Shown here: in pieces, positions 45,779 to 63,152 of the stretch
How the letters are laid out: the number at the start of each line of letters is the position of its first letter
How positions within the stretch are numbered: position 1 is the first letter of the stretch
NCBI GenBank assembly: GCA_963846575.1
Contig: CAWJWJ010000002.1
Coordinates: forward strand, 2,752,001 to 2,816,000
Direction of reading: 5' to 3'
Length of the DNA stretch: 64,000 nucleotides
Source: an uncultured Nitrospiraceae bacterium
Lineage (GTDB): Bacteria > Nitrospirota > Nitrospiria > Nitrospirales > Nitrospiraceae
Program-made: the position numbers and the translations under genes
Notes under the pieces: model-generated
What the model saw: only the letters and a program-made list of their open reading frames with translations
Databases searched by the model: none
Told to the model about the DNA's origin: nothing

Positions 45779-46720
45779 CTACTGCCGGTAGCACCAGGAG
45801 CTGTCCTCCAGACAATCTCGCAACCAGTGGGCCGGTTCGAATGAGTCCGCCAGGGGCGCGACCGATTGGTAGGCCTGGTAACTCCAACGGACAGGATCCT
45901 GTTTCATCAGGAAATCCGCCTGCAACAGAGCGCCAAGCATGTCCGGCACCTTCGATAGTCTCAAGGTCCGGTGTGAAGACGGCACCAGGCGCGCCGGGAT
46001 GAGTTCGAAGTTAGCGTGGGCTTCCTGGCCGCTGCTATCGTGAATGCTGACGCGCACGAACTGTTCACGCGACGCCCCGCCAGGCATCGGGATCTGTATC
46101 CGCTCTGATGAGACTCCCTCTTTTTTGAACAGCACGCGATGCGTGGCATCTGTCGAGACCAGTTCGACGCCATACGGCGGCTCCCCGCCCTTCCAGGCTA
46201 GAGACCACCCGGTCAGATCGTTTGCCAGTTGACTCATCCCCCCTTCCAGCAGGGGAATCACCAGGGGTTCATCCTCCCCACGGCTGCTGGTGCTGGTTTT
46301 GGTCACCCTTCTCACCTGCTGCGCCGTGAGGCGGCTGCCGAGATCCATGAGCAACGTGCCCAGACGCATCAAGAATCCAGGCGGTGATTCGGCAGGGGGG
46401 ACGACATACGGAGACTCCTTTTCGGTGACCGTGATCCGGCGGTTCCCGCATCGGAGCAGGACCTTATTCCAAGGTCCCTGCACCACGACCCGGTCCCCCG
46501 GCCGGACGGGCAACAGCAAGGCCAGCGATACAGGCGCCTCAGCTCGTTGCAGAGAAAAAGCCGTCATGTCGCCGACCAGTTGTTCGACGTAACCGACCGC
46601 CGTGCGAACGTCGGCCGTGGATTCGGCGCGCGACAGCCCCGTCCAGCCTGTCGCTCCCAGGACCAGCGCCAGCATGCACGAGAGGAAGTTCAGAGGCAGG
46701 GACGACGATTGATTACTCAT
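45779..46720 (-). CDS. exported hypothetical protein (FecR-like N-terminus, DUF928-like C-terminus by pattern)
   Basis: 313-aa ORF with a signal peptide, an ATGA overlap with the upstream CHASE2 gene, and a low-complexity linker TKTSTSSRGEDE. Domain names are by eye only. Confidence 0.72.
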   Translation of the reverse strand: MSNQSSSLPLNFLSCMLALVLGATGWTGLSRAESTADVRTAVGYVEQLVGDMTAFSLQRAEAPVSLALLLPVRPGDRVVVQGPWNKVLLRCGNRRITVTEKESPYVVPPAESPPGFLMRLGTLLMDLGSRLTAQQVRRVTKTSTSSRGEDEPLVIPLLEGGMSQLANDLTGWSLAWKGGEPPYGVELVSTDATHRVLFKKEGVSSERIQIPMPGGASREQFVRVSIHDSSGQEAHANFELIPARLVPSSHRTLRLSKVPDMLGALLQADFLMKQDPVRWSYQAYQSVAPLADSFEPAHWLRDCLEDSSWCYRQ

Positions 46721-48396
46721 GGTGTAGCCCGCGGGCGGATATGCTCCCGTTTGATTTTGGGAGATTCGACGTTGAAGTCAATGAACCGGCCATAGGCCTG
46801 GAGAACCAGCAACGGAAACACGACGTCCAGCCACCAGCCATACTGAAACAGCCACAGACTGACCGGCACCAGCAACACGTTGACGACGAAACGAGCCACC
46901 CGGGTTCCCCACGATTTGGTGAAGTAGGAGAATGACAGGCTGAAGGCGGCCACAATGGCGATCAGGATGGCCCATCGCATGCCGACGTTCAATTCCAGAA
47001 TCTGGCCATACTCCAGCAGCGCGTTGATCTCATTGATGACGATGAGAGCGCCGGACATCTCGCCCAGCGGGGTCGCGTGACTATCACCCGCCCTCGCGTA
47101 GCTCGATCCGATCACGACTATTTTGCCCGCCAGCCAGTCCGAACTGAGAGGACGCGCCGGTTGAGGATCGGTGATGATGGAGGCCTGCACCTGCGAGAAA
47201 TACTCGGCTTGTACGGACCCGGGGTAGAATTTATAAAAAATCCGCTGTTCGAGATCCGTCAGATGCGGACTTATGACGACCGGACGGGGGAGCACGCTAT
47301 CGCTCAACCGCCATTCCTGATGGGCCTGGCGATGGGCCGATAACGCCACGGCGCCATTGCCGTCGAGGCACTGCCCTGCCGGGGGTCCGAATCGACGCCG
47401 CAATTCGGCCAGAAATCTTTGAACAGAAAATGGTTCGCCGTCCATGGGCGGTTGGCGGATCAACGCCCACGAGAGGAGTGCCACGGAGGGCACGACATTG
47501 GGCGCCTGCTCCAAACAGGTCGGCTCGTAGAGACGCCAGCTTCGCAACACCCCGTCCTCATCCCGCTGAATGAGAGACGAAGCCCAGTGCAGCACCGGAG
47601 ATGGCTTCACCACGGTTTCCAAAAACTCGGACGGCCGTTCCTCGTAAAACAGGCCGGAGCCGTCGCCCTCCCCCGCTGCGGAGCCCTCCATCCCCTCCGG
47701 CATGTTGTGACGCAAAGACTGGCCAATGGTGCGGACAAAAATGATCTGGGTGGGTGACTGCTTCCCGACGGCTGACGCCCTTCCGGCCTCTGCCGATGCC
47801 TGCGAATAGGTGTGCAGGTAGTCCGCGAGTGAGGCATCCGGATCGGGAAGTGTCTGGCGAGCGGGGGCAGGACCCGGTGCAGGCTGTAACGGTCCGACAT
47901 ATTTCACCAACTCGATATCCACCACCAATAGCTTGGCGTGCGCCTCGACGACGAACTGAATCAGCCGCAGGAGCTTATCCCGCGGAACGAACAACGGTTC
48001 GTTCCAGCCTTGATGGGACTGCTCATCGATATTGACGAAGACAAATCGTTCCAGCGGGGAATGTTTGTGGGCGGGGCGGTCCCTCCAGAAGCTGATCGCC
48101 CAATCGGTGGCGGCGGTTTCCGCGAGATTGAAGGCCGGCAGGTACGGGCGCGCAACGGAAAGAAAGATGGCGGCTCCGAGACCGATGACCAGACTCTTCA
48201 GGAGATGCTGCGCGAAAGGCGGAAGACCGTGCCAGAGCCTGACAGCCGGTGCCGAATAAGGACTAAGCGGGCGCGCCGCTCGTTGGAGCGTGTGTTTCAG
48301 CCGTCCCAGGATATTGAAATAATCGACCACGAACCGCCTCGTGGAATCTCTGATCAGCTCGCCCCGTGTCCGGGGCCCATCGCACGTCAGCTCCAA
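46717..48396 (-). CDS. CHASE2-domain membrane sensor without cytoplasmic output domain
   Basis: N-terminal TM, FVFVNIDEQS..W..PRDKLLRLI..LVVDI, DEDGVLR, LAGKIVVIGS..DSHATPLGEMSGALI..N, three C-terminal TMs and a ~25-aa tail. The start is uncertain. Confidence 0.88.
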   Translation of the reverse strand: MELTCDGPRTRGELIRDSTRRFVVDYFNILGRLKHTLQRAARPLSPYSAPAVRLWHGLPPFAQHLLKSLVIGLGAAIFLSVARPYLPAFNLAETAATDWAISFWRDRPAHKHSPLERFVFVNIDEQSHQGWNEPLFVPRDKLLRLIQFVVEAHAKLLVVDIELVKYVGPLQPAPGPAPARQTLPDPDASLADYLHTYSQASAEAGRASAVGKQSPTQIIFVRTIGQSLRHNMPEGMEGSAAGEGDGSGLFYEERPSEFLETVVKPSPVLHWASSLIQRDEDGVLRSWRLYEPTCLEQAPNVVPSVALLSWALIRQPPMDGEPFSVQRFLAELRRRFGPPAGQCLDGNGAVALSAHRQAHQEWRLSDSVLPRPVVISPHLTDLEQRIFYKFYPGSVQAEYFSQVQASIITDPQPARPLSSDWLAGKIVVIGSSYARAGDSHATPLGEMSGALIVINEINALLEYGQILELNVGMRWAILIAIVAAFSLSFSYFTKSWGTRVARFVVNVLLVPVSLWLFQYGWWLDVVFPLLVLQAYGRFIDFNVESPKIKREHIRPRATP

Positions 48397-48513
48397 CCCT
48401 GGAGGCGCCAGCCCTTAGCCCCTGCAGATTTACGGCGACAGTGTACCAAAACGAGACGGAGTTCTGGTACCATCTCTCTGGCGCGGTGTTCAGAATCTGC
48501 GCGGAGCCGACTC

Positions 48514-50850
48514 ATGAAGCGCGTTCGTGTCTCCTTCAGGCATCTCCTCATCCCGTTGCTGCTCGTCGCCTTCAGTCTCCCTGTCAGCGTTACCGCGGAA
48601 GTCCGGCGGGCGCTCCTGGTCGGAATCGATCAGTATGATCGCGGCCGCTCTCCTTTGACGGACCCCTCCTTCTCCGGCACTCCTGGCCGCCGAACCTGGC
48701 AGAATCTTCAAGGGTCGGTGAACGACGCCACCACCATGCGGGAGGTGCTCATCCACCGGTTCGGGTTTCATGACGCAGACATTCTGATGTTGACCAATGA
48801 GCAGGCGACGCGCGCCAACATCCTCACTGCTTTTCAGCACCATCTCATCGACGCCGCGAGGCCGGGTGATCTCAGCGTGATCTTTTATGCAGGGCATGGG
48901 TCCAGGATTTACAACTCACGCTCCCCGGAACTCGATCGGAGGGACGAAACGATCGTCCCTGCCGATGCCAACCTGAACACCGATCCCAAACGCATCATCG
49001 ATATTCGGGATAAGGAATGGGACCGGCTCTTCACGCAGGTGCTGGACCGCGGGGCCAAACTCACGGCGATTTTCGACAGTTGCCACAGCGGCTCGATCTC
49101 CCGGGGACTCATCCCCATGACCATGGGTGTCCGCTCACTCCAGGAGGACGCACGGGATGTCGCCTTGCTGGTTGGACCTGAACCGCCTGTCCACGCACCT
49201 GGCCGGGAACCGGAAAAACGCGAGGGAGCCCTCATTGTCTCAGCCGCACAAGAAGACCAGCCGGCGCGGGAGGCGGCCCGCCGGGTCGGAGAGCGCAAGG
49301 AATGGCACGGCGCGTTCACCCTCGCGCTGGTCGATACGCTGAATGAACTACCGTCCACTGCGACCGCCCAGCGGGTCTTCGACCAGGTCACGGCCAAACT
49401 CAAAGCCGGAGGCCACAATCAAGACCCGGAACTCGCAGGCCCCCCGACGAGTCGCCATGCGCCGTTGTTCGGAGGCACAGTCGATGGGCACGAGCATGCG
49501 CTCCGACTCAATGTCGTGCGCGCCTATGGATCAGACAATGTCGAGATGCAGGGGGGAACGGCTTTGGGGCTGACCGTCGGAACGGAACTGGTCCGGGCCG
49601 CCGGGACATCAAACCGCGGATCCCTACGGCTGCGCATCAGCAGCGTGCGCGATCTGCTCGTCAGCCAGGCGATGGTTCTCCAGGGGTCGTGGAAGGACCT
49701 CAGGCCCGGCGACGAGTTCGAAATCGTCCACCGCGGCAGTAGCACCGACAGACCATTCCGGCTCTGGCTCCCGCCCACGACCGATGATGTCTCCGGTGCC
49801 CTGCGCCTGGCATCGGATCTACGCGGGGCCCTGCCCTCTTCAGCCACCTGGGTGGAAGATCCGACCGTCACGGCCCCCACCCATCTGATCTTTTGGAACG
49901 GGGCGGAATGGATCCAGAGCCCGCCGTCGAAGCTCCCGGTGGCGCTGGGACCCCGGCCCACCGTCGCACAGATCATCGGCTCGCTCGCAGCGGACAGCTC
50001 ACCGATCAAACTCTTTATGAATATTCCGCCATCCCGTGCGTTTCGCGAACGGCTGACCGGTCCCGGTCTCCCGGCAGAGTTCGCAGCCGAAGTGACGCGC
50101 GATGCGGACGAAGCGGATTACGTTCTGATCGGCCGTGCCCTCTCCGAGCAGAGTGAGCATGCCTGGGCGCTCCGCGCGTTTTCGGCGACTGCCGCCACCT
50201 CATCGCGTACGTCTCCCATGCCTCTGCCGGTTCGAACTGCCTGGGGGAGCGAGAGCACACATCACGACACCTGCCAGGCGGGAGGCCTCCGCGACTGCGT
50301 TTCAAGATTGGCAAAGTTACACCATTGGTTGACGGTCAAGGGACCTGAGGACAACGGACGGTTTCCCTACCGGCTCGGGTTTGAAGCACTCGCGAACAGG
50401 ACTCTGGTGACGGTGGATACCCTGGTAGCCGGATCCTATCAACTACTGCTCAATGGCGATCTGGAGTCGGTCCGCCGCGTGCAGGACTCGTGGGGCATAC
50501 AGTCACGATATGTCTATGTCTTTGTGATCGACCAACAGGGGCAATCGACCCTGCTGTATCCCAACGATTCCTCCCAGGACAAGGAAAACTGGCTCCCGAC
50601 CCCTGCTCAGCTCAAGCAGGCATCCACGGCCGCTGTACGGATCTCCCTGGGAGGGAGCGGGACCATGACGGTACATGAACCCTTCGGCACCGACACCTAC
50701 ATTCTGCTGACTTCCGTGCGACCCATTCCACATATCAAAGAACTGGTGGAATCGGAGGGAGTCGTGGGCAGGCAGGATCCCATGCGGGGACAGGGGGATT
50801 GGTCGATTGATCGTCAATTTGTACTCAGTGCGCCCGGCATGAGTCACTGA
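48514..50850 (+). CDS. exported caspase-like (C14) peptidase with C-terminal DUF4384-like domain
   Basis: Signal peptide, RALLVGIDQY..NLQGSVNDA, FYAGHGS (His), IFDSCHSG (Cys) and C-terminal YVYVFVIDQQG..LLYPN. Start ATG 48514; the ORF-track extension is antisense to CHASE2. Confidence 0.92.
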   Translation: MKRVRVSFRHLLIPLLLVAFSLPVSVTAEVRRALLVGIDQYDRGRSPLTDPSFSGTPGRRTWQNLQGSVNDATTMREVLIHRFGFHDADILMLTNEQATRANILTAFQHHLIDAARPGDLSVIFYAGHGSRIYNSRSPELDRRDETIVPADANLNTDPKRIIDIRDKEWDRLFTQVLDRGAKLTAIFDSCHSGSISRGLIPMTMGVRSLQEDARDVALLVGPEPPVHAPGREPEKREGALIVSAAQEDQPAREAARRVGERKEWHGAFTLALVDTLNELPSTATAQRVFDQVTAKLKAGGHNQDPELAGPPTSRHAPLFGGTVDGHEHALRLNVVRAYGSDNVEMQGGTALGLTVGTELVRAAGTSNRGSLRLRISSVRDLLVSQAMVLQGSWKDLRPGDEFEIVHRGSSTDRPFRLWLPPTTDDVSGALRLASDLRGALPSSATWVEDPTVTAPTHLIFWNGAEWIQSPPSKLPVALGPRPTVAQIIGSLAADSSPIKLFMNIPPSRAFRERLTGPGLPAEFAAEVTRDADEADYVLIGRALSEQSEHAWALRAFSATAATSSRTSPMPLPVRTAWGSESTHHDTCQAGGLRDCVSRLAKLHHWLTVKGPEDNGRFPYRLGFEALANRTLVTVDTLVAGSYQLLLNGDLESVRRVQDSWGIQSRYVYVFVIDQQGQSTLLYPNDSSQDKENWLPTPAQLKQASTAAVRISLGGSGTMTVHEPFGTDTYILLTSVRPIPHIKELVESEGVVGRQDPMRGQGDWSIDRQFVLSAPGMSH

Positions 50851-50930
50851 GTTCTCCGCGGGGCTTGACTGGGCGCCGGACTTTCTTTATAGGACTGCTG
50901 CCGACGAACACATCCACCAGAGGGTCCCCC

Positions 50931-51557
50931 ATGCGTATCCCCTCCTCTCGTCACTCGTGGCCTCTGGTTGTCGCCTCCCTCTGCCTCTTAGGGGCCAGCG
51001 GGTGCCCCGTGCAAGCCGGCTGTGGAGTATCCGGCGGAATGCCAGGGACGCAACAAGGCTTTGGCGCCCAAAGCTGGACCTGCCAGGCATCGGTTCAAAT
51101 TGCCAAGGGCGCGACCATCAGCAGTCCCGGCCCGGTCAAGAGAGAACTGCTGGCCAAAAAGGAATCGGCGAACGTCCAGATCGCCAGCCTGCGGAACGAG
51201 TTGTCGCAGTCGGAGGAACGGGGATTCGGGTTCAGCGGAAAAGACGGCGGCGGCGCGGCGGACGACACACAACGCACTGACGAGCTCACCAGTAAAATTA
51301 GCCGACTGCTCGATTCGACTGAGCAGCTGGACCAGGGGCTTAAAGTGCTGGAAGCCTTGACGCCTCCAGCCGGCAGTTACTCGCTCGACGATGGAAATTG
51401 GACCGTAAACGGCGATCGCGTGACCTTCCAGACGAAATCGCCCTACATTCCCAGCAAAAACGTCACCATCCCCTACGTCATCCGATCCCCGCAAGGCGAA
51501 CTGATCGAAAGTGGATTTCTGCCCATAGAATCGGTCCGGGTCGAACAACAACCCTAG
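50931..51557 (+). CDS. hypothetical lipoprotein with coiled-coil hairpin
   Basis: Signal peptide ending GASGC, a Cys pair, two heptad helices separated by EERGFGFSGKDGGG, and a beta-rich C-terminus. Confidence 0.65.
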   Translation: MRIPSSRHSWPLVVASLCLLGASGCPVQAGCGVSGGMPGTQQGFGAQSWTCQASVQIAKGATISSPGPVKRELLAKKESANVQIASLRNELSQSEERGFGFSGKDGGGAADDTQRTDELTSKISRLLDSTEQLDQGLKVLEALTPPAGSYSLDDGNWTVNGDRVTFQTKSPYIPSKNVTIPYVIRSPQGELIESGFLPIESVRVEQQP

Positions 51558-51620
51558 GTTCGCTCCGGCAGAGGACCCGGCTCACGTGGATGGAGTTCGA
51601 CGCTCCACAAAGAGGCTGCT

Positions 51621-53342
51621 GTGACGAGGTCCAGGCCGACGATTTTTTTTGCACTCGTCCTGCTCGTGATCCTGACGCCGCCCTCCTACGGCGAAACGTG
51701 GCTCCCCCCGTCTCACCCTAAAGTCAAAGACGCGCTCACTATTTATGACCGCCTGGTCCGCACGATCGGTGACTCCCGCATGCCGCCGGATCTCCGCATG
51801 GTGGCGGGCAAGGCATCAAATTTCGATGTCGCGCTCTATTCGCCAAGCCGTCGAATCATCTATGTGGAGGAAGAGTTCTACGATCTCGTGCAGTCAGCCT
51901 TGCCATCGAGTTCTTCTCATGGGCTGGCCTTAATCCTGGGCCACGAACTGGCCCATTTCTATCGCAACCATGCCTGGGCAGAAGACTTCAACCGGGCCTT
52001 CGCCCGGCGTCAGACGGCCCCTCCGGAACAGGGCACGGCTCCGGCCGGACCCGTCCCGCCGGAAACGGCCTCGGAGCGGCGTCGCCTGGAGGCGGAGGCC
52101 GATTACTTCGCAGGTTTTTATGGGTACCTCGCCGGGCTCCCCACCGTCTCCGTTGCATCCCAACTGTTCGACAGCATCTACCTCCACTACCATTATGACC
52201 CCGCATTGCCGGCCTACGAGCATCTGCGGCAGCGGAAGGACACCGCCCGCGAGGCCCAACAAAAACTGCGGGCATTGATTCCCCTGTTCGAAGCCGGCGT
52301 GCAGTCCCTCCTGATCCAGGACTATGAAAGCGCGGGGCGCATCTTCACCCGCGTCGCGGCCGACTTCCCCAGCCCCGAAGTCCTGAGTAATGCGGCGGTA
52401 GCCGACCTGCTCGCCGCCCTGCAAGGGGAGAGCGAGACCGACCGACGGTTCATCTATCCGGTCGAAATCGATCCCGATACGCGCCTCAACGGCGAAACCA
52501 CTCGAGGGCAACTCGACCTGACTCCGGAAGAGCGTCTCGCACGGCGACACATGTTGTTGGAGCGGGCCAGACGGACACTCGAACAGGCGACGAGGATGCA
52601 TCCTTCCTATGCGGCTGCCCAGCTCAACCTGGCCTGCGTACTCGATTTGTTGGGCGACTATGAATCCGCGGCAACCGCGGCCGGCCAGGCCCTCCTGTTG
52701 AGCCGCGCACAGCATCTACCCGTTTCGATGGCCCACGCCAGGAACATCGCGGGGATCATCCTCGCCCATCAGGGCCACGTCGACGAGTCGATACGGGAAT
52801 GGCAACAGGCCGCAGACATGGGTGACCGGACAGCGGCCCATAATCTTGCTGCCAGGCGTGCTGCGACAGAGGGCGACGAGGGGATTGCGCCTGCGCCCCC
52901 CTCTCCTCCGGACCAGGTGAATGGCCTCAACATCGGGGACATCACGGCGAACGACTTTCTGCAGGCGGCCAACGTCCGCATCCTGGGGCGCTGGGACGAA
53001 GACGTGGACGGGACCCCGCCCCTCACCGTTCAGATGATCGAAAAGGCCGACACCCGTGTCACGGCCCTCGTCAGAGGGGCGGGACCCACGAGGTCAGTCG
53101 TCTTTTTTGCAAGCACCGGACGGGGGGCCGCCGGCGAAACCATCCGGGGAGTCAGGACGGGACAACCGGCAGAAGCGGTAGAACAGGCCTATGGTGCACC
53201 GACATCGACCTTGAACCTTCCACGGGGTCGTTACGTCGGGTATCACTCTGCCGTCGGAGAGGGAGAAGTCGGAGTCATTTTCCGATACAACGAGGACCAG
53301 ACGGTGCAGGAATGGGTGGCCTACCGAATCGAACGCGATTAA
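51621..53342 (+). CDS. exported M48-like zinc metallopeptidase with TPR repeats
   Basis: Signal peptide, ALILGHELAH (HExxH), LEAEAD third-ligand motif and TPR helices (AAAQLNLACV..GDYESA). Confidence 0.85.
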   Translation: MTRSRPTIFFALVLLVILTPPSYGETWLPPSHPKVKDALTIYDRLVRTIGDSRMPPDLRMVAGKASNFDVALYSPSRRIIYVEEEFYDLVQSALPSSSSHGLALILGHELAHFYRNHAWAEDFNRAFARRQTAPPEQGTAPAGPVPPETASERRRLEAEADYFAGFYGYLAGLPTVSVASQLFDSIYLHYHYDPALPAYEHLRQRKDTAREAQQKLRALIPLFEAGVQSLLIQDYESAGRIFTRVAADFPSPEVLSNAAVADLLAALQGESETDRRFIYPVEIDPDTRLNGETTRGQLDLTPEERLARRHMLLERARRTLEQATRMHPSYAAAQLNLACVLDLLGDYESAATAAGQALLLSRAQHLPVSMAHARNIAGIILAHQGHVDESIREWQQAADMGDRTAAHNLAARRAATEGDEGIAPAPPSPPDQVNGLNIGDITANDFLQAANVRILGRWDEDVDGTPPLTVQMIEKADTRVTALVRGAGPTRSVVFFASTGRGAAGETIRGVRTGQPAEAVEQAYGAPTSTLNLPRGRYVGYHSAVGEGEVGVIFRYNEDQTVQEWVAYRIERD

Positions 53343-53400
53343 GCAGGTGGAACCGGGTGGAACCAGCAGCCGGAACGGTTTGCACGAAGGTGCGGCAGAA

Positions 53401-53432
53401 GTCCCGGCAGCGGACGGTGCGGCTGCCGGGAC
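53401..53432. terminator. GC-rich hairpin between convergent transcription units
   Basis: GTCCCGGCAGC (53401-53411) pairs with GCTGCCGGGAC (53422-53432), a perfect 11-bp stem with a 10-nt loop. No clear U-tract. Confidence 0.5.
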
Positions 53433-53476
53433 ATCGGACGTTCATCGCCCGGAGTCGATAAGAACCCGGGCCAGTT

Positions 53477-54328
53477 TTAGAACCGGGCGATCACCTGAAA
53501 CGTGGGTCCCCAGGTGATGTCATTATTGGCTGTCGGGGCATTGTTGATATTGATGATCTGCGCGCGAAAGCCCACCTGAATCGCAGACCCGATCCGGCCG
53601 GCCCCCGTTTTCAGAGCGGGACCATCGAACGAAAGCCCCATCTCAGCCGAATATCCGGTGACGCCATTGGCGGTCACGCGGCTCTGTCCGCTGGCGTTGG
53701 AATTTTCGTCGTAAAAACCGAGGGCAAGATTCCCGTAGGCACTGACCGGTCCGGCGACTGCGCCCGACCCGAAGACACCGATGATCGGGCCGCTGATCCA
53801 GACGGATTCCTTGGCCGGAACGCTCAGGGTCAACGATTGGCCGCTGAAACGTTGTTGCATGTGATAGTAACCGCCGAAGATGCCGAACCCACGCCAGATG
53901 GAGAGAGCCGCGGAAATGGAATAATCACGGCGAGTGGCTGATGTATTGTCGGTTCGTCCCGGAAATCCCGGAGCCACATCGTTGCCGAAGGAACTGAAAT
54001 CAAATCCGCCGGCCTGCAGCCAGGTAAAATTGACGGAGAGCCGGTTCATGAACTCATCGTCGCGGAGTTTGAAGGAACCGGTCACGCTGGGGCCCATCAA
54101 GGCGGTCGTATCCGATGTCCGGGAGGCGCTGATGCCCCGCGCGAACCCGGCAGCCTGCCATTTGGCAACCCAAAATTTCATGCCCATATCAAGGGAAAAC
54201 CGGTCCCCCAGAATCCTGCGACTGGTCGCATCCGGATCCTCAGCCGCCGTGACAGGCGTAACCGACATCGTCGCCATCACGGTCATGACGAATACCATCG
54301 CAAATAGTGTCTTCCTCACAGGTGCCAT
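53477..54328 (-). CDS. outer-membrane beta-barrel protein
   Basis: Signal peptide, alternating amphipathic strands and C-terminal VIARF. GGAGGAGG RBS; start is 54328 or 54334. Confidence 0.72.
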   Translation of the reverse strand: MAPVRKTLFAMVFVMTVMATMSVTPVTAAEDPDATSRRILGDRFSLDMGMKFWVAKWQAAGFARGISASRTSDTTALMGPSVTGSFKLRDDEFMNRLSVNFTWLQAGGFDFSSFGNDVAPGFPGRTDNTSATRRDYSISAALSIWRGFGIFGGYYHMQQRFSGQSLTLSVPAKESVWISGPIIGVFGSGAVAGPVSAYGNLALGFYDENSNASGQSRVTANGVTGYSAEMGLSFDGPALKTGAGRIGSAIQVGFRAQIININNAPTANNDITWGPTFQVIARF

Positions 54329-54397
54329 GCGCATCCTCCTCCAGAAATTGTGCCCTTCCACGCGTTGACGTCATACGTACTCTGCGTTGCGCGCTCA

Positions 54398-55855
54398 TCA
54401 GAACCCCCCGACAAACGGCGGGGGAGATCCTTTCCGCGGCTTTTCTTCAGGCTCCGGGGCCTGCCCTCTGACGGGAGCCTCTTTTGCAATCCGTTCCGCC
54501 TCCCGTCTCCGAATCTGCTCCTGCTCCAAGGCACGCCGCGTGTCCGCCTCACGCTGTTGCTGCTCCGCCAGCAACCGCTCGAGTTCTTCACGCTGCTTCT
54601 TCTCCTCCGTCGCCCTGCGTCTGGCCTCTTCTTCAGCGCGGCGCTGCTCGGAGACAGTTCTTTGCCTGGCCGCCTGTTCTGCTGCCTCACCACCCCTCCG
54701 GGCGTCGGCTGCCTGTCGTTCCGCTTCCAGACGCTGCCGGTGTTCGTCCTCGAGTTGACGCTTGACGTCGGCCTCGTCACGGCGCTGCTTTTCCAACTGA
54801 CGCTCGAGTTCGACAAGGTGAGCCCGTTCCCGCTCCAGTTTTTCCTTGGCATCGGATTCGATCCTGCGACGGTCCTCGGCCAGACGCTCTAACTCTTTCT
54901 GCAGTTCCTGCTGCGCTTTATCCCGCTCCTGTCGAATGCCCTGCTCGGCTTTGGCACTTTGTTCTTGCAGGGCTTGTGCCGCAGACGCGAGTTGCAAAAT
55001 GAATTGTCCGCCCTCGTCATTGGCATTCTGGAGCGGCTGACTGCGCGGCATCTGATCGGCATTGCGGGCAACCAGCGGAATCACGCTGTCGGCAATACGG
55101 CTTGGAACCAGATACGGCTCCTCATTGTCCCGAAGAAACTTGAGGAGGTGATACGCAAACACACTATGCCCGTCCTTCCCCTGGTCGGCCACCGGCTCGG
55201 TGCTTCCGGAGGTGAACCCCCAGCGGGAACGTTTGGCATAGAGTTTCGCGTAGTACCGGTCGGTCAGGCGGGGAAGTATCGCGCGGGTTTGAGCAAAGAG
55301 CGAGCCGCTGAAACAAGAATCCGCGATCACATACACGTGGCGGGCACGCATGACGGCGACATAATTACGGATCGCGGCGTCGAGGATCCACGATCCGGGT
55401 TCGTCGATGTTTCCATCGACCGGAACCCACCAGGCCAACTGATTGTCATCACTGTATTGCCCGTGACCGGCGTAATAAATCAACACACTGTCGGCGGCAC
55501 CGGCCTCGCGCGCCAGTTTGACGAATGCGCCCTCGATGCGGCTTCTGGTCGCATCCGCGTTCAGCAACATTCTGATGCGCTCCGGCTTGAACCCGTAGCG
55601 TTCCACCAGCACGTCACGGATGCCCATCGCGTCCGCCACTGCGGTGTGCAACCTCGGGGCGCCTGAATACTCGTTGATTCCGACGATCAGGGCCCAATAC
55701 TGGCCCTCGATCGAGACCTCTCCGGGAACCGCCTTCAGAACGGGACTGGCTCCGCGCGCGGCCCCCTTATCCTGCCCGCCCCATCCAAGAGAGGGTGTCA
55801 GGGCGAGAGTAACTATGGCGAACAAGGCACCCAATCGAAGAGCTAAATTGGGCAT
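54398..55855 (-). CDS. exported caspase-like (C14) peptidase with long C-terminal E/R/Q/A coiled coil
   Basis: Signal peptide, WALIVGINEY, YYAGHG (His), IADSCFSG (Cys), ~170 aa of charged helix and a PPPFVGGF terminus. Confidence 0.92.
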   Translation of the reverse strand: MPNLALRLGALFAIVTLALTPSLGWGGQDKGAARGASPVLKAVPGEVSIEGQYWALIVGINEYSGAPRLHTAVADAMGIRDVLVERYGFKPERIRMLLNADATRSRIEGAFVKLAREAGAADSVLIYYAGHGQYSDDNQLAWWVPVDGNIDEPGSWILDAAIRNYVAVMRARHVYVIADSCFSGSLFAQTRAILPRLTDRYYAKLYAKRSRWGFTSGSTEPVADQGKDGHSVFAYHLLKFLRDNEEPYLVPSRIADSVIPLVARNADQMPRSQPLQNANDEGGQFILQLASAAQALQEQSAKAEQGIRQERDKAQQELQKELERLAEDRRRIESDAKEKLERERAHLVELERQLEKQRRDEADVKRQLEDEHRQRLEAERQAADARRGGEAAEQAARQRTVSEQRRAEEEARRRATEEKKQREELERLLAEQQQREADTRRALEQEQIRRREAERIAKEAPVRGQAPEPEEKPRKGSPPPFVGGF

Positions 55856-56102
55856 AGATCCCTCAACAATCGTCGCACAGGCTATTACGCGAATTGCCGG
55901 AGGAGGGCGAGTCTACAACAGCCGCTTACACCTTTCAATCGGGAGCATCTGCATGTCCGCCATGAGCTGATCGTGATGCCTGGGAGGGCCTGCTCATTCA
56001 TCAGACTTCGTTCAGAAATGTGCGACGGTCCATCGTTCCGGCCGGACAGTTAGTGAGGCCGACCGGAATACCAGGGTTTTCGAAAAGTCGCCCATCTCCG
56101 CA

Positions 56103-56132
56103 TTGACAAGAGGGAGTACTGAAAAATAGACT
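56103..56132 (+). promoter_or_regulatory. sigma70-type promoter for the WD40-caspase operon
   Basis: TTGACA (56103-56108), an 18-bp spacer and TAGACT (56127-56132). Confidence 0.55.
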
Positions 56133-56270
56133 ACGCCCTCCTGCGTATGGTTGAACCTATTCATCAGCACGCGCGACAGAAGGAAAGGCCACGAGCGAAG
56201 GGTCGCCTTTCTTCGGCATCCCGACCAGGATGAGAACGCAGAAGGCATCGGGTTTTGAAAGGGGGATTCC

Positions 56271-59200
56271 ATGCGCAGGTTTCGGTGGGCTCTCAGCGCG
56301 GCCCTCTCGATCCTGACCCTCGCCCCGGTCCCTCTGTCAGCCACTCTGCCTGATACCTCCCCCCGCCTTCTGAGCGGTCACAACAGCGAGATCCTCACCA
56401 TGGCCTATTCGCCGACCGGGCACCTCCTGGCCACGGCCGGCATCGACCAAACCATCAGGCTCTGGAACCCGGAAAGCGGACGGGACCAAAAGGTCCTTCG
56501 CGGCCACATGGGAGCCGTCCATGCGCTGGCGTTCTCACCGAACGGGAAATTCCTCGCCTCCGGAAGCGCGGATACGTCGATACGACTCTGGGACGTCGAC
56601 TCAGGGCAGCCGGTCCATGCCGTGACATCCAATTTCGGCGCGGTACGGGCCGTGACGTTTTCGGCGGACGGAAAAATGCTCGCCACCGGGGGCAACGACG
56701 GCAGCCTTCGATTCTGGGATGCGGCGAGCGGCAAGGAGATCCGGTCGGTTCGAGGCCAGTTCGGCATCGTGTACAGCATCGCCTTCTCCCCCGACGGCAC
56801 GACGGTCGCTACCGGAAGCAGCGACATGCGCGTTCACCTCTGGGACCTCGCCACGGGACGTCAACGCAGTCTCCTGACAGGCCATACCGGCGCCGTCTAC
56901 GGCGTCGCCTTTGCACCGGGAGGCCGGCTCCTTGCCAGCGCGTCAGGCGACGGCAGCGTCCGCATCTGGAACGCCGAGACAGATCAGGAACAGCTCACCC
57001 TCCTGGGCCACAAGGGAGAGGTTCATGCGATCGCCTTTTCACCCGACGGCCGTTCGCTGATTTCCGCCGGGGCCGATGGGTCGGTCCGTGTCTGGGACAT
57101 CGGCTCGGGACATGAACGTTACCAACTCACGGGCCATAAGGGAGCAGTCCGCGCGCTGGCCATTTCTCCCGACGGACTCGTCGTGGCCAGCGGAGGACGC
57201 GATAAGACCGCGCGGCTGCAACCAAGCGTGTCGGCGGCCGTCAACGCACTCCTGGCCGACAAGATCAAACAGCGGGGAAACGAGACCGGCGCCAGCCCCT
57301 CCCCGCCTCCCCTGCCCGAAGCGGAACTCGCCATCCGCCCGGTCGAACTGAAAGCGGGACAGCCGGTGACCCTGACCTTGAACGTGACCAACCGGGGGAA
57401 GGGACCGCTCTACCGGTTTCAGGCCAGGACACAGAGCGACGATCCCGCTCTGAACGGCATCCTGTTTTACCTCGGAAAACTCGACGGCGGGGAGAGCGCC
57501 GCCGACAGCGTCACTCTGCCGCTGCCGGCCGACCGCCCGGACGGCACCGTTCCCCTGTCCCTGTTGTTCGAAGAGTACAACGGGTTCGTGCCGGCGCCCT
57601 TGCAAGCCGCGCTGACAATCACGGGTCTTCCACGGCCGCGTTTTGCCTTTACTCATCAAGTGTTGGATGACGGCTCCGAAGAGTCGGTCGGCAACGGGGA
57701 CGGACGCATCCAGAAAGGCGAAGCCGTGGATGTGCTGCTGACGGTCAAGAATGTGGGTGCGGTTCCGGCCCAACAGACCACCGTCGATGTGAACCTCTCC
57801 TCCTCGAATGATGTGCGCCTCAGCCACTCCGTCATCGACTTCGGATCGCTCAAACCAGATGAGACGAAAACCGCCCGGGTGAATCTCTTCGTCAGCCGCA
57901 ACACCACACTCGACGATATCCCTCTTCGACTCCTCATCCGGGAACGGGGCATGAACGTCACGCTCGACGAAACGGTGACGCTGGCCATCGACCATCGTGC
58001 CGCCCCGCAAATCATGGCCACCAACAAACTCGTCGCGGTCGGAGAAGCATCCGCCAAAATCCACAGCGGAGCCGGGGCCGAAACCTCCGTCATCGCCTCG
58101 GCAGGGAAGGATCAGGCGCTGGCGGTGACGGGCGAACTGGGCGACTGGTTACGCGTGCAGATGACGGACAAGGAGGCCGGCTGGATCGCCAAACGTGACG
58201 TGCGTGACACCGCCCAACCGGCCAAAGGAGAGATGCCGGTGCCGGTCATCGCGGGCGCGCCGGTGATGAAACTCTTTCAAAACGCGCCGCCGGTCATCGC
58301 CCTGGCTTCGCCTTCCGACGGCGCGGAGGTCACCGCGGACAGGATCCTCCTCGCCGGCGCCGCCGCAAGCGAACGGGGCATCGCGCGGGTGGAGATTCGT
58401 GTGAACGGTCAATTGCTCACCCATCGCGAGGCGCGCGGGATTGCCGTCAGGCCTGACGCGCCGGCTTCCCAACCCAACCTGGAATTCTCAGAACGGCTGA
58501 CGCTCAAGGAAGGCAAAAACGACATTCTCGTCTCCGCGATCGACCGGGACAATCTCTCCACGCAACGCACCATCACCGTCATGCGGAACATGGATCGCGG
58601 GAAGGTCTGGGCGGTCGTGATCGGGATTTCCAAGTATAAGACGGTCCACCCGCTCCGGTACGCGGACCTCGATGCGCTGGCCTTCAATGAATATTTGACG
58701 CGCAATGTGGGCGTGCCGCCGGCGCAGATTACCCTGCTGCTCAACGAACAGGCCACGTTGACCAGCCTCAAGCGCACCCTGGGCACCGAACTGAAACGCA
58801 AAGCCGCGGAGAAGGACACCGTCATCATCTATTACGCCGGGCATGGCGCCCCCGAAGCGGATGCCTCAGCCTCCGACGACGACGGACTGGAGAAGTACAT
58901 CGTTCCCTACGATGCGGATCCGAAAGACCTCTATACCACCGGCCTGCCGATGCGCGAGGTCGAGACGATCTTTAACCGGTTGGCGCCGGAGCGCGTCATT
59001 TTTATCAGCGATTCCTGCTACAGCGGGGCGACCGCCGGACGTACCTTTGCCACCGCCTCGCGCCGAGCCATCGTCTCCGACACCTTCTTGAATCGATTGT
59101 CGAAGGGCAAGGGACGCATCGTCTTGAGCGCGAGCAAAGCCAGCGAGGTCAGCGAAGAGCGGGAGGATCTGGGCCACGGCGTCTTCACCTACTATCTGCT

Positions 59201-59366
59201 GGAAGGGTTGCGTGGCAGCGCCGACACCGATCAAGACGGCATCGTGACCGTGGACGAAGCCTACAGTTATGTCTCGAAGAAGGTGCCGGACGTGACCGGC
59301 CAGAATCAGCATCCCATTAAAAAGGGAGAAGTGGAAGGACAACTGGTGCTGGGACAGGTGAGGTAG
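56271..59366 (+). CDS. exported WD40-repeat / Ig-like / SH3-like / caspase-like (C14) protein
   Basis: Signal peptide, ~7 GH..WD repeats, a Pro-rich linker, two CARDB/Ig-like domains, an SH3b-like region (GDWLRVQ..GWI), an Ig domain and a C14 domain with YYAGHG and ISDSCYSG. Confidence 0.93.
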   Translation: MRRFRWALSAALSILTLAPVPLSATLPDTSPRLLSGHNSEILTMAYSPTGHLLATAGIDQTIRLWNPESGRDQKVLRGHMGAVHALAFSPNGKFLASGSADTSIRLWDVDSGQPVHAVTSNFGAVRAVTFSADGKMLATGGNDGSLRFWDAASGKEIRSVRGQFGIVYSIAFSPDGTTVATGSSDMRVHLWDLATGRQRSLLTGHTGAVYGVAFAPGGRLLASASGDGSVRIWNAETDQEQLTLLGHKGEVHAIAFSPDGRSLISAGADGSVRVWDIGSGHERYQLTGHKGAVRALAISPDGLVVASGGRDKTARLQPSVSAAVNALLADKIKQRGNETGASPSPPPLPEAELAIRPVELKAGQPVTLTLNVTNRGKGPLYRFQARTQSDDPALNGILFYLGKLDGGESAADSVTLPLPADRPDGTVPLSLLFEEYNGFVPAPLQAALTITGLPRPRFAFTHQVLDDGSEESVGNGDGRIQKGEAVDVLLTVKNVGAVPAQQTTVDVNLSSSNDVRLSHSVIDFGSLKPDETKTARVNLFVSRNTTLDDIPLRLLIRERGMNVTLDETVTLAIDHRAAPQIMATNKLVAVGEASAKIHSGAGAETSVIASAGKDQALAVTGELGDWLRVQMTDKEAGWIAKRDVRDTAQPAKGEMPVPVIAGAPVMKLFQNAPPVIALASPSDGAEVTADRILLAGAAASERGIARVEIRVNGQLLTHREARGIAVRPDAPASQPNLEFSERLTLKEGKNDILVSAIDRDNLSTQRTITVMRNMDRGKVWAVVIGISKYKTVHPLRYADLDALAFNEYLTRNVGVPPAQITLLLNEQATLTSLKRTLGTELKRKAAEKDTVIIYYAGHGAPEADASASDDDGLEKYIVPYDADPKDLYTTGLPMREVETIFNRLAPERVIFISDSCYSGATAGRTFATASRRAIVSDTFLNRLSKGKGRIVLSASKASEVSEEREDLGHGVFTYYLLEGLRGSADTDQDGIVTVDEAYSYVSKKVPDVTGQNQHPIKKGEVEGQLVLGQVR

Positions 59367-59426
59367 TCCCGCTCCATCGTATTTCTCGCACAGTCCGTTT
59401 CGTTGTCGATGTAAGGAGGCCATCAC

Positions 59427-60425
59427 ATGCAGCGTTTATCATTCATTATTCTATTTATCGTGTGCGGACATTTCGCAGTGCTGTCAGGCTGCGCGGAAGT
59501 CGAAGTCGTCAAGGCGCCGGTCGAAATTCCGTCCCGCATCTATACCGCCAATGAAAGCTCAAACGACGTCAGCGTGATCGACGCCACGACGTTCGCGTCG
59601 ATCGGAAGCATCGACTCGAAGAATCAATCGACTCACGACATCGCCGTCTCTCGCGACGGCCGCCGCATCTATGCCACCAACCTGGCCAGCGGCCGACTCT
59701 CGGTCATGGATGCCGGAACCATGGAAACGATCGCCTCAATCTATACGGGCCAGCGCTGCCACGTCGTCGCGCTCACCAACGACAACAAGCAGGCCTGGGT
59801 GGCGAATATCGGCGACAACAATATTTCGATCATCGATACGGACACGTTTCGCATTCTGGGAACCATTCCGACGGGCAAAGGCCCCACGGGCCTCACCTTC
59901 TCGCATGACGGCAAGTTCGCCTATGTCAGCACCTCGGGGGACAAGACCGTCAACATCATCGACACCGCCACCCACCAGATCGTGAAGGCCATCCCGGTCG
60001 GAGCCAACCCGCATTTTCTGGTCGTGGGCCCCCAGGGCTTCGTGTGGGGCACCAATACCGGAGGCACGGACATCTATGTGATCGATCCGGCCACACAGGA
60101 AATCGCCGGCACGTTGGAGGTCGGAGCGAAGCCGCAGCAGATCGCGTTCGGCTACAAGGGGATCCAAGGCCCCAACGTCTATGTGACGGTCGGCGGGCTC
60201 AACAAGGTGCTCGCAGTCCCTGCAGATCCCAAACACCTGAAAATCATCGATGAAATCAGCGTCGGCGAAGGGCCGAACGGTATCTGGGCCAACCCGGAAG
60301 GCACCCGCCTGTTCGTCGGTCACGACAAGGGCAATGACCTGCGCGTCATTGATACCGGCACGAGCCAGGTCATCGCCACGGTTCCCGTCGGGCGCAAGCC
60401 GATCCGGGTAGTCGTGTCACGATGA
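59427..60425 (+). CDS. YncE/YVTN-type beta-propeller lipoprotein
   Basis: Lipobox LSGC and repeated Y..N..S..VSVID..T...IATIPVG..P units. Confidence 0.9.
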   Translation: MQRLSFIILFIVCGHFAVLSGCAEVEVVKAPVEIPSRIYTANESSNDVSVIDATTFASIGSIDSKNQSTHDIAVSRDGRRIYATNLASGRLSVMDAGTMETIASIYTGQRCHVVALTNDNKQAWVANIGDNNISIIDTDTFRILGTIPTGKGPTGLTFSHDGKFAYVSTSGDKTVNIIDTATHQIVKAIPVGANPHFLVVGPQGFVWGTNTGGTDIYVIDPATQEIAGTLEVGAKPQQIAFGYKGIQGPNVYVTVGGLNKVLAVPADPKHLKIIDEISVGEGPNGIWANPEGTRLFVGHDKGNDLRVIDTGTSQVIATVPVGRKPIRVVVSR

Positions 60426-60509
60426 TTTCAGCAGCGGTCCGGCTGACAGGGGCCGGGCGATACGACGATTAACATCGACATCGGCATTCCAGGGGGCATG
60501 GAGGACTCT

Positions 60510-61151
60510 ATGACAAAACAGACACTCATTGGTGCGATGGCCGTCACATTGACACTCGTCGGCCTGGCCTCGCTCGCCGGTGCCGCCAGTGCGCCGGTCG
60601 GCTGGGCCGTCAACGCCATCGGTACCCTGACGATCGTTCGGACGGATGGCGTCCAGGAGCAGCTGCAGGGCCGGAAGACCCTGCCACTTTATGAAGGAGA
60701 TGTGCTCAAGACCGACGCCTCGAGCCAGGCCTACGTGCAATTAAAACAAGGGGTGAACATCGCCCTCAACGAAGAGACGACGTTCAAAATTCTCTCGCGC
60801 TGGCAGAAGAACAAGCCGACGACCTGGATCCTCCGCCTCACGCAGGGTGAGGTCTGGGCCAAAACAGCCGGAGACGGGCCGAAGGCCTTTGAAGTCGAAA
60901 CCCCGGTCGCGACGGCGGCGGTGAAAGAAACGGAGTTCAATCTCAAAGTTCAGGAAGACGGCCAAAGCATCCTGACCGTCATCGAAGGAATCGTCCAGTT
61001 CGGGACAGCGTTCGGGACCTGCCCGATCCGCACCGACACCATTAGCTACGGCGTACGCGGGAAGAAATGCACCAAGCCGGCAGCCTCCGACGCCAAAGCC
61101 GCCAAGGCCTGGACGCAGACGTTGCTTCCTTCGTCGGCCCCGGTGCAGTGA
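60510..61151 (+). CDS. exported FecR-domain protein
   Basis: LYEGDVLKT..LNEET..LRLTQGEVW..FEVETPVATAAVKETEF..LTVIEG.V. GGAGGA RBS. Confidence 0.85.
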   Translation: MTKQTLIGAMAVTLTLVGLASLAGAASAPVGWAVNAIGTLTIVRTDGVQEQLQGRKTLPLYEGDVLKTDASSQAYVQLKQGVNIALNEETTFKILSRWQKNKPTTWILRLTQGEVWAKTAGDGPKAFEVETPVATAAVKETEFNLKVQEDGQSILTVIEGIVQFGTAFGTCPIRTDTISYGVRGKKCTKPAASDAKAAKAWTQTLLPSSAPVQ

Positions 61152-61267: not shown

Positions 61268-61720
61268 ATGATGAATCGACGCATGGGACTCAGCCTCTGT
61301 GTGATTGCCATCACCGCCCTGGTTTCCATCTCGATGGAGGTGGATAGGCCTCCCGGCTCTCAGGCGCCGGAGATTTTCGCTACGGCGGTCGCAGCCGGTG
61401 AAGATGCGCCGAGCGGCGGCGGCTACGGCTGCCAAAGCAACGGGAATTGCCAAGGCACCCTCTATACGGACAGACGCAACCTCGATCGATGGTGGTATGG
61501 AATCTGTAGCGGCTGCCACAGCCCTCAGGCAGCTTCACCGGCCAATCCCCTTACCCCGCTCTCTCCGGCTCAACGCAAGTTTATCGGGGATGCCAAGGCC
61601 TTCTGGGCGTTGCACGCTCAAGCCAAATCTGATCCTGTACTCCGGGCGATGCTTCTCAAAACCAAACTCAAACCGATCCAGACCCTGTCGCCGGAGTTTC
61701 GCGCATTGACCGCGAAATAG
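61268..61720 (+). CDS. exported protein with a single CxxCH haem c motif
   Basis: N-terminal hydrophobic segment, GICSGCHS and an additional Cys pair. GGAGGA RBS. Confidence 0.65.
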   Translation: MMNRRMGLSLCVIAITALVSISMEVDRPPGSQAPEIFATAVAAGEDAPSGGGYGCQSNGNCQGTLYTDRRNLDRWWYGICSGCHSPQAASPANPLTPLSPAQRKFIGDAKAFWALHAQAKSDPVLRAMLLKTKLKPIQTLSPEFRALTAK

Positions 61721-62032
61721 CCTTCAACATGCTCTCAATACCTGGGTCCCTCCGTCTCTCACTAGTAGGCGGACGCGGAACGACTAGAGGAGATTCGAGA
61801 GCCGAATGGGAAAACAGAAAAGGGGAAAGCATAGGTGGGCTGTGACGAGGGGGCACTTACACCACTCATGACGCTGAAGGAGTGGTGGAGGCACGTTCCA
61901 GCATTCTCACTCACATGAGATGTAATCTAAAAAAGTGTACAGAAGCATTTCTGGACGTATGACAGGGTCAGTCACCGCTGCATCGCCCCCGAGGTCCGCA
62001 GCAGGAAGTCCATCAGCAGCTGAGAGAAATCC

Positions 62033-63013: not shown

Positions 63014-63152
63014 GAGGGCCCCCTGGGCACCCGAGTTGACAGTACGGATTCTCGGCGGCGGGATCGAGTACAACTCAATACATAACAGGCCGTTTGACAA
63101 TCACGAGAGGAAATTCGCGAATCGAATGAGCAACGACGGAAGGAGATGAAGC

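Follow-up and report, generated by a model that had tools for sequence, protein, structure and literature searches.

In the 64,000-nucleotide stretch of an uncultured Nitrospiraceae genome analysed here (GenBank assembly GCA_963846575.1, contig CAWJWJ010000002.1, positions 2,752,001 to 2,816,000, forward strand; hereafter the window), ten consecutive open reading frames (ORFs), g1 to g10, contain a conserved core of three genes (Table 1). The core consists of g1, for a predicted secreted protein of a family without a name, g2, for a CHASE2 protein without an output domain, and a gene for a predicted exported caspase-clan protease, which belongs to the C14 family here (g3) and to the CHAT family in many other bacteria. 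The initial annotation had read all ten genes as a single extracytoplasmic caspase cascade. Predicted exported caspase-clan proteases, an M48-type peptidase and an output-less CHASE2 protein are found together in numerous unrelated genomes, so it is reasonable to read them as a periplasmic module for protease signalling, but not as one of ten genes; the module is real, conserved and, as such, apparently undescribed in print, and both smaller than and different from what was first proposed.

In a check of gene neighbourhoods, the association of C14 or CHAT with CHASE2 and g1 was conserved in other genomes. Loci were collected with a degenerate DNA pattern, which favours GC-rich genes and whose motif and spacing cover 59 of 161 known members. 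The scan gave 23 genome and 46 metagenome loci, and with six fetched stretches added, a g1 gene was present in 51 of 75; record titles in the scan cover Alpha-, Gamma- and Deltaproteobacteria, Spirochaetales, Vulcanimicrobiota and Nitrospira. Ten of the 51, with fewer than 300 bases upstream, were dropped. In 37 of the 41 evaluable loci, the gene immediately upstream of g1, and codirectional with it, encoded CHASE2. Nineteen loci extended 4 kb upstream, and in 17 of these a gene of the C14 or CHAT family was found at most 9 kb from g1; when the loci were reduced to clusters of 50% identity, the figures became 14 of 18 and 9 of 11, respectively. None of 21 false-positive scan loci (228 kb), which served as controls, carried these families. 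The neighbourhood profiles were partly built from the same loci; Pfam confirmed their CHASE2 calls in 10/10 and 7/7 cases and CHAT in 2/2, and did not confirm C14 in L052 and L119 at E 1e-5. For a second sample, two further orders were searched with a profile, which matched in 4 of 93 and 13 of 251 genomes; this sample comprised 16 loci, two of which repeated earlier ones. Among the remaining 14, CHASE2 adjoined g1 in nine (four divergent, one downstream) and CHAT was near in 11; three loci had neither partner, and one locus ended 328 bases upstream. Across 300 genomes of the phylum of G383 the g1 profile matched the seed only. The partner proteases mostly had a hydrophobic N-terminus and the catalytic Cys motif, g3 stood beside g2 in G023, G049, G375, G249, L065, L091 and L106, and M48 peptidases were recurrent beside g1 (L059, L066, L116, L119 and L155). 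Also recurrent in g1 loci, next to the gene for M48 or CHAT, were predicted exported proteins of about 200-220 amino acids without a Pfam match (L059:3051-3695, L116:16546-17148, L155:5264-5872, L153:2663-3331, L157:1706-2368 and L159:4184-4855).

No cytoplasmic output domain was found in g2 or in its 46 homologues, all of which (46/46, with lengths to 940 amino acids allowed) had PF05226 alone. Its topology is an N-terminal transmembrane (TM) segment, CHASE2 and C-terminal helices, of which hydropathy detected two of three in g2 and three in several homologues; the g2 tail is about 25 residues long, and tails after the last helix were short and unconserved in 34 diverse sequences. One exception was G332, in which TPR-CHAT, CHASE2-adenylate cyclase and g1 follow one another in that order, forming a bridge to ordinary receptors. 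The genome under study also encodes a CHASE2-adenylate cyclase and a CHASE2-sigma54 activator. At G000:C2:327847-331350 (L004:9848-13342), a CHASE2-adenylate cyclase is followed by a predicted exported SH3 protein and an M48 lipoprotein; this cyclase is a possible output partner of g2.

The g1 family comprised 1,069 clusters (50% identity) at E<=0.001. Called merely FecR-like in the initial annotation, g1 is in fact the central component of the module; as a FecR protein it was rejected, its resemblance to g10 being weak and confined to the N-terminus (hhalign probability 20%, E 0.001). Searches of the genome with the MtxA families PF22121 and PF24045 gave no match at g1. Its structural model (mean predicted local distance difference test score (pLDDT) 75, predicted template modelling score 0.51) runs from a small beta domain (strands at 43-107, the domain being placed at 39-115) through a helix (116-139) and a low-confidence linker (135-149, pLDDT <50) to an Ig-like sandwich and four helices. 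In this linker, 134 of 142 family members had a basic residue (Arg or Lys) at position 147, which was part of an Arg-Gly pair in 100. The N-terminal domain best matched the 'cell surface anchoring domain' 5IX9 (Z 9.4, root-mean-square deviation (rmsd) 2.2, 72/76), which we take to be an RTX-adhesin retention module. Residues 152-313 matched the Ig-like plus TPR-like C-terminal domain of MtxA (PDB 4Z29) at rank 7 (Z 6.1, rmsd 4.8, 143/169 aligned) and, by Foldseek, at E 8e-4; in the Atlas, g1 was placed with unnamed clusters (0.93-0.94) and an MtxA cluster (0.89), which serves as a lead only. MtxA (MGR_0208) is a 313-amino-acid secreted protein of Magnetospirillum gryphiswaldense whose gene is followed by one for a CHASE2-adenylate cyclase, and trypsin converts it to a stable fragment starting at residue 142, according to its structural report (PMC4439547). 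A signal peptide (in g1, predicted by hydropathy), a length of about 310 amino acids and a gene beside CHASE2 are common to both proteins. DUF928 proteins have an invariant Arg and an invariant Trp 29 residues apart, the same spacing as in g1, and a DUF928 model showed the same order of strands and helices; its first-ranked match was MtxA 4Z29 (Z 9.7, rmsd 4.6, 159/169; next row 6.5), in an alignment beginning at the invariant Arg57 of DUF928. Fusions were present among the best 150 g1 matches (four with CHASE2 and one each with C14, TPR-CHAT and TPRs), some of which may be read-through gene calls, and a g1-like C-terminal module stands at the start of a CHAT protein in L055 and L089.

The motifs AGHG and DSC[H/F/Y]SG noted earlier in three caspase-like proteins were present in g3, g7 and g8, all of which scored above the PF00656 cut-off with a His-Cys dyad. 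The closest structures to g3 and g8 were metacaspases, and Asp residues are retained both close to the first loop and ahead of the catalytic Cys; among these aligned Asp residues are presumably those that form the S1 pocket. Non-animal C14 enzymes characterised so far are reported to cleave after Arg or Lys (PMC5756287). Judged from their sequences, the C14 proteases here would be exported, active and Arg-cutting. An Arg is kept 7-16 residues past the Cys of each caspase, and Arg-Gly linkers are conserved (g8 Arg722 in 12/12, g7 Arg34 in 4/4 and g3 Arg758 in 6/7); both would fit self-processing, against which stands the lack of enrichment of the motif across the locus (P 0.09). In g5, where the predicted HExxH motif was found as HELAH, His108, Glu109, His112 and Glu157 were invariant in 24/24 aligned sequences, and the score against PF01435 was 16.9 bits, below the curated cut-off of 20.3, which more distant g5 relatives pass. 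The Ig/SH3 middle of g8 (residues 357-772, window 57258-58595) matched the C-terminal part of MXAN_5808-type S41 peptidases (TIGR03900, E 9e-73), and we propose that it may be a substrate-binding scaffold common to unrelated exported proteases. Several relatives had 5-9 C14 matches each, and in G055:C168 (L038:447-5941) a g3 orthologue lies in tandem with a protein of two C14 stretches and a DUF4384 protein.

The favoured, though still tentative, reading of the trio is that of a periplasmic protease, pro-partner and CHASE2 module, in which an Arg-specific exported protease would cut g1 and so alter its binding to CHASE2. In its favour stand the neighbourhood counts of both samples, the g1 fusions, the basic residue kept in an exposed linker ahead of the predicted MtxA/DUF928-like module, the fold matches to MtxA together with the published MtxA data, and the alignment of g3 and g8 to metacaspases. 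Here g3 would cleave g1 after Arg147, parting the N-terminal cap from the Ig-helical module, and the CHASE2 domain of g2 would bind cut and uncut g1 differently. Because g2 has no output domain, it might serve other CHASE2 receptors as co-receptor or sink, or feed back on the proteases, which is the most speculative step. Several observations weigh against this reading. Neither partner was near the g1 genes of L096, L151, L160 and L162, and the neighbourhood counts are not independent because many of the loci are kin. The Arg-Gly pair is kept beside CHAT proteases too, whose known targets, as described in PMC11506125, are not all Arg sites, and may therefore be structural; across the locus [STAV]RG was not enriched (10 against about 6 expected, P 0.09). 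Since g2 has no cytoplasmic domain, the output-less receptor has no obvious route for signalling across the inner membrane. With respect to the fold link, the Z of 6.1 for g1 against 4Z29 falls in the generic Ig-fold range, no MtxA Pfam or DUF928 match was obtained for 139 g1 members at E<=0.1 among the 25 families listed of 28, a PDB sequence search with g1 gave no MtxA match, and profile-profile comparison of g1 with DUF928 (PF06051) by hhalign gave E 0.27, with the Arg-Gly and the Trp aligned; homology of g1 to MtxA and DUF928 is not shown by sequence. Deletion of mtxA, in the published account, was without phenotype (PMC4439547).

A wider scheme is more doubtful: CHASE2 domains would be receptors for proteins, g1, DUF928 and MtxA would form one secreted pro-ligand superfamily, switched at Arg-Gly by exported Arg-cutting caspase-clan proteases, and output-less CHASE2 proteins would be co-receptors or decoys. 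It is just as doubtful whether such switching would be a bacterial counterpart of protease-activated ligand signalling. It seems rather unlikely that g1 and g2 form a device for control of the protease, in which g1 would occupy the active site through its Arg linker, as bait or pseudo-substrate, and the membrane-anchored CHASE2 would tether the complex, keeping the enzyme inactive or in place until a cue frees it. Such a device would account for a CHASE2 protein without an output domain, for the interchange of C14 and CHAT as neighbours and for the joining of g1 or a g1-like C-terminal module to C14, TPR-CHAT and CHAT proteins, whereas the presumed fold relatives MtxA and DUF928 adjoin CHASE2 receptors with outputs (PMC4439547 describes the MtxA case) and the g1 gene of G332 follows a CHASE2-adenylate cyclase.

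Rather than one unit, the ten genes form two sets whose adjacency is fortuitous. A seven-gene cassette, g1-g7, spans 45779-55855; among 120 relatives, the g2 query matched two (G023 and G049), the g5 query one and the g10 query 24 (25 of 121 genomes at E<=1e-30), and the g1 profile matched in 5 of 301 genomes of the phylum. G023 has all ten genes in the same order, and G049, from another genus, has eight, its locus being without g4 and g5. The cassette was found with order and orientation kept, at other sites and with 36-83% identity, in G375 and G249, where g8-g10 did not adjoin it, a statement that covers only the neighbourhood of the cassette, the rest of both genomes not having been searched. 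Conversely, g8-g9-g10 occurred without g1-g7 in 11 genomes (regions fetched), in six of which ackA, a CusF-like gene and g8 are consecutive, at the site that is filled here by g1-g7. The g7 protein was 71-87% identical in G023, G049, G375 and G249, and a g6-like gene adjoined a C14 gene on its own in G081 and G031; in bacteria of other families the module carries a single protease or two, with CHAT frequently taking the place of C14. We propose that g4-g7 are a family-level elaboration of the core and that the cassette landed beside g8-g10, an operon independent of it. An ordered extracytoplasmic cascade of all ten genes, as initially annotated, in which three caspases and the M48 peptidase would activate one another and the FecR protein and barrel would relay a surface cue, is accordingly hard to uphold and we regard it as improbable: the synteny in G023 and G049, the Arg after the catalytic Cys and the Arg-Gly linkers of each caspase, and a hybrid of g7 and g1 (P0020) would suit it, but each set occurs without the other (g8-g10 in 11 genomes, six of them with the same chromosomal site), and the CHASE2 query (2/120) and the FecR query (24/120) differ in their spread among relatives. 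P0020 itself is a 397-amino-acid record in which the g7 caspase domain is joined to the C-terminal half of g1, by deletion fusion or misassembly.

Table 1. Features of the locus (positions in the window)
Feature	Position	Strand	Product or description	Profile match	Set
g1	45779..46720	-	313 amino acids, predicted secreted protein, family without a name		core
Arg147-Gly148 codons of g1	46277..46282	-	candidate cleavage site		
g2	46717..48330	-	537 amino acids, TM-CHASE2-3TM	PF05226, E 1e-20	core
g3	48514..50850	+	778 amino acids, predicted exported C14 protease, His128 and Cys190		core
g4	50931..51557	+	208 amino acids, probable lipoprotein		cassette accessory
g5	51621..53342	+	573 amino acids, predicted exported HExxH metallopeptidase (M48-like) with TPR region		cassette accessory
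g6	53477..54334	-	285 amino acids, probable outer-membrane beta-barrel		pairs with C14 gene
g7	54398..55855	-	485 amino acids, predicted exported C14 protease, His131 and Cys181		
g8	56271..59366	+	1031 amino acids, predicted exported WD40-Ig-SH3-C14 protease, His858 and Cys916		three-gene block
g9	59427..60425	+	332 amino acids, YVTN beta-propeller lipoprotein	TIGR02276, E 1e-48	three-gene block
g10	60510..61151	+	213 amino acids, predicted exported stand-alone FecR-domain protein	PF04773, E 1e-16	three-gene block

The ORF strands agreed with the four alternating transcription blocks first described (g1 and g2, minus; g3, g4 and g5, plus; g6 and g7, minus; g8, g9 and g10, plus). The g2 stop and g1 start overlap by 4 bases, and g3, which has a DUF4384-like domain at its C-terminus, is transcribed divergently from g2; g7 has a long charged helical tail after the C14 domain, and the g9 lipobox is at residues 19-22. 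CHASE2 in g2, FecR in g10, WD40 in g8 and a YncE-type propeller in g9 were above the Pfam cut-off, while DUF4384 in g3, CARDB, Big_7 and SH3 in g8, and TPR and M48 (E 0.006) in g5 were significant at scores below it. The coiled coil of g7 was based only on a sequence rich in Glu, Arg, Lys and Gln, and the g6 barrel on a sequence pattern and a C-terminal Phe. There was no Pfam family match for g1, g4 and g6, no NCBIfam match for g4 and g6, and no usable Atlas match for g4. Export had been assigned to all ten proteins; a hydropathy scan detected an N-terminal hydrophobic segment in eight, with g1 and g4 below the threshold. Among 142 g1 relatives, 89% passed the hydropathy test for a signal, and an atypical lipobox Cys in the Cys-rich N-terminus of g4 was kept in 5/5 aligned orthologues. 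Export is accordingly a prediction from hydrophobic N-termini only. Such N-termini occurred in 32% of called genes, with further runs of 8-9 such genes in the genome; a run of predicted exported genes is not rare here.

Close homologues of the locus proteins are database records under Nitrospira. The genome has five PF00656 matches (seven by our own C14 profile), three CHASE2 and two CHAT genes, and the clustering of caspases at the locus is beyond chance, since three of the five PF00656 matches lie within 11 kb of 4.2 Mb. GC content and GC content at third codon positions (GC3) of the locus genes were typical of the genome, which speaks against a recent foreign origin, and scans for promoters and terminators came close to the shuffled level (6 against 3.4 and 16 against 13.9, respectively). 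The proteases might instead process adhesins or outside proteins at the surface or in the periplasm, with CHASE2-g1 sensing unrelated to them and the clustering due to a mobile pool of exported accessory genes. The locus starts a stretch of 48 kb with 25 predicted exported genes among 35 called, compared with 21% over the whole genome, some relatives have many predicted exported C14 genes and no g2 match, g1 adjoins two-partner secretion genes in L098 and L102, and Arg-Gly is not enriched locus-wide; even so, adjacency and fusions over several phyla, with 0/21 controls, are more than loose clustering gives, and we consider this explanation unlikely. An envelope-triggered anti-phage or cell-death system, with the four-TM CHASE2 protein as membrane effector, is likewise improbable. 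The spread is patchy (5/301 genomes of the phylum), caspase-clan proteases are common in defence and the caspases matched the PADLOC caspase model, and the periplasmic TPR-CHAT domain of DdvA is reported to regulate a defence island (PMC11506125); set against this, PADLOC over 12 proteins returned the caspase matches, a WD40-driven repeat match and no other component, no gasdermin or CRISPR gene was found among the scanned neighbours, and GC3 was genome-typical. Farther along the window, three more predicted exported genes lie 3' of g10 (61271-63998), two with carboxypeptidase-regulatory-like domains, and 62033-63013 has CxxCH motifs and a weak cytochrome c7 match.

The FecR gene had been counted as a partner of the module, whereas g10 belongs to the separate g8-g10 block. 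Its FecR domain was found without a cytoplasmic anti-sigma part, a signal-like segment stands at the extreme N-terminus, and no extracytoplasmic function (ECF) sigma or TonB-dependent receptor gene is adjacent, the nearest ECF/anti-sigma pair being 23 kb off. FecR proteins usually have an Arg-Gly-Thr self-cleavage motif; g10 has Lys-Glu-Thr at this position and a conserved Arg-Gly at 183 (12/13). About 20 kb past the window end, at G000:C2:2833729-2840020 (L002:5730-12021), genes for an ECF sigma factor, a zinc-finger anti-sigma factor and a fourth predicted exported protease (C14-DUF4384) form one operon, divergent from a DUF4384 lipoprotein gene. In G011, G013, G029, G039, G049, G077 and G101 this operon lies 8-40 kb from the g8 orthologue. 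It may be the block that truly partners g8-g10, and would link them directly to transcription. A DUF928 gene is found immediately 5' of the g8 orthologue in G077, and G000:C1:1098900-1110999 (L007) contains two-partner secretion genes, a predicted exported TPR-CHAT gene, two DUF928 genes and an adjacent TonB-dependent receptor gene, with no CHASE2 gene.

A description of the trio was not found in the open-access literature searched, supplements (for example those of PMC8195603, which may list such neighbourhoods) being outside the scope of the search. The earlier remark that no experimental description was known is to be qualified by DdvA of Myxococcus xanthus, which has a periplasmic TPR-CHAT domain with a proposed signalling cleavage (PMC11506125). 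The DdvA-DdvS pair resembles the present module in its periplasmic caspase-clan protease domain and proposed trans-envelope signalling; unlike here, DdvA is, as described in that report, a single anti-sigma protein in the membrane that itself carries the CHAT domain, with unproven cleavage and with neither CHASE2 nor a separate partner (PMC11506125). No such anti-sigma-CHAT fusion is present in the locus, and the two CHAT genes of the genome lie elsewhere. Fusions of caspase and CHASE2, including EACC2-caspase-CHASE2, likewise link C14 to a four-TM CHASE2 without other output, but their caspase is predicted to be cytoplasmic and is itself the receptor output (PMC3501461, PMC2853523, PMC8195603, as far as these describe them), whereas here it is a separate gene product with a signal-like N-terminus. 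MaOC1 orthocaspase and the metacaspases share with g3, g7 and g8 the C14 His-Cys dyad and the expected Arg/Lys specificity and self-processing, and differ, as characterised in PMC5756287, in not being exported and in having no receptor or partner gene.

The LysM/FecR and CHASE2 histidine kinase operons of Burkholderia also encode a secreted partner beside a CHASE2 receptor; there the output of the receptor is a kinase, a full FecR domain forms the partner, and the description of the operons does not mention a caspase (PMC5192318), while the true FecR gene here (g10) is in a block that travels without CHASE2. An exported FecR-domain target of Clr has been described elsewhere (PMC5498481). MtxA, in the published account, is like g1 in its 313 amino acids, N-terminal beta region, protease-sensitive linker at about 141-147 (in g1, a low-confidence linker), Ig-like and helical C-terminus (predicted in g1) and CHASE2 neighbour; unlike MtxA, g1 has no MtxA Pfam match, is paired with a CHASE2 protein that lacks a cyclase, and has a predicted exported C14 or CHAT protease in its neighbourhood. 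One CHASE2 and DUF928 cluster is described in PMC5587647. Sets of CHASE2, DUF928, TPR and CHAT resemble the g1 module in having CHASE2, a predicted exported caspase-clan protease and a secreted partner of predicted MtxA-like fold whose Arg-Gly precedes a conserved Trp by 29 residues; g1 differs by an extra N-terminal domain and the lack of a significant DUF928 sequence match, its CHASE2 protein is without output, and C14 can replace CHAT. The CHASE2 recognition target was stated to be unknown in 2016 (PMC5192318), and exported bacterial caspase homologues were noted in 2012 as common but unexplained (PMC3501461). The module supplies candidates for a ligand and a protease, and one candidate cleavage site; should cleavage and binding not hold up, there is still a large family without annotation whose neighbourhood follows a firm rule. 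Compared with these systems, what is new here is the g1 family, the output-less receptor, the interchange of C14 and CHAT, and the predicted fold link between three orphan families, g1, DUF928 and MtxA.

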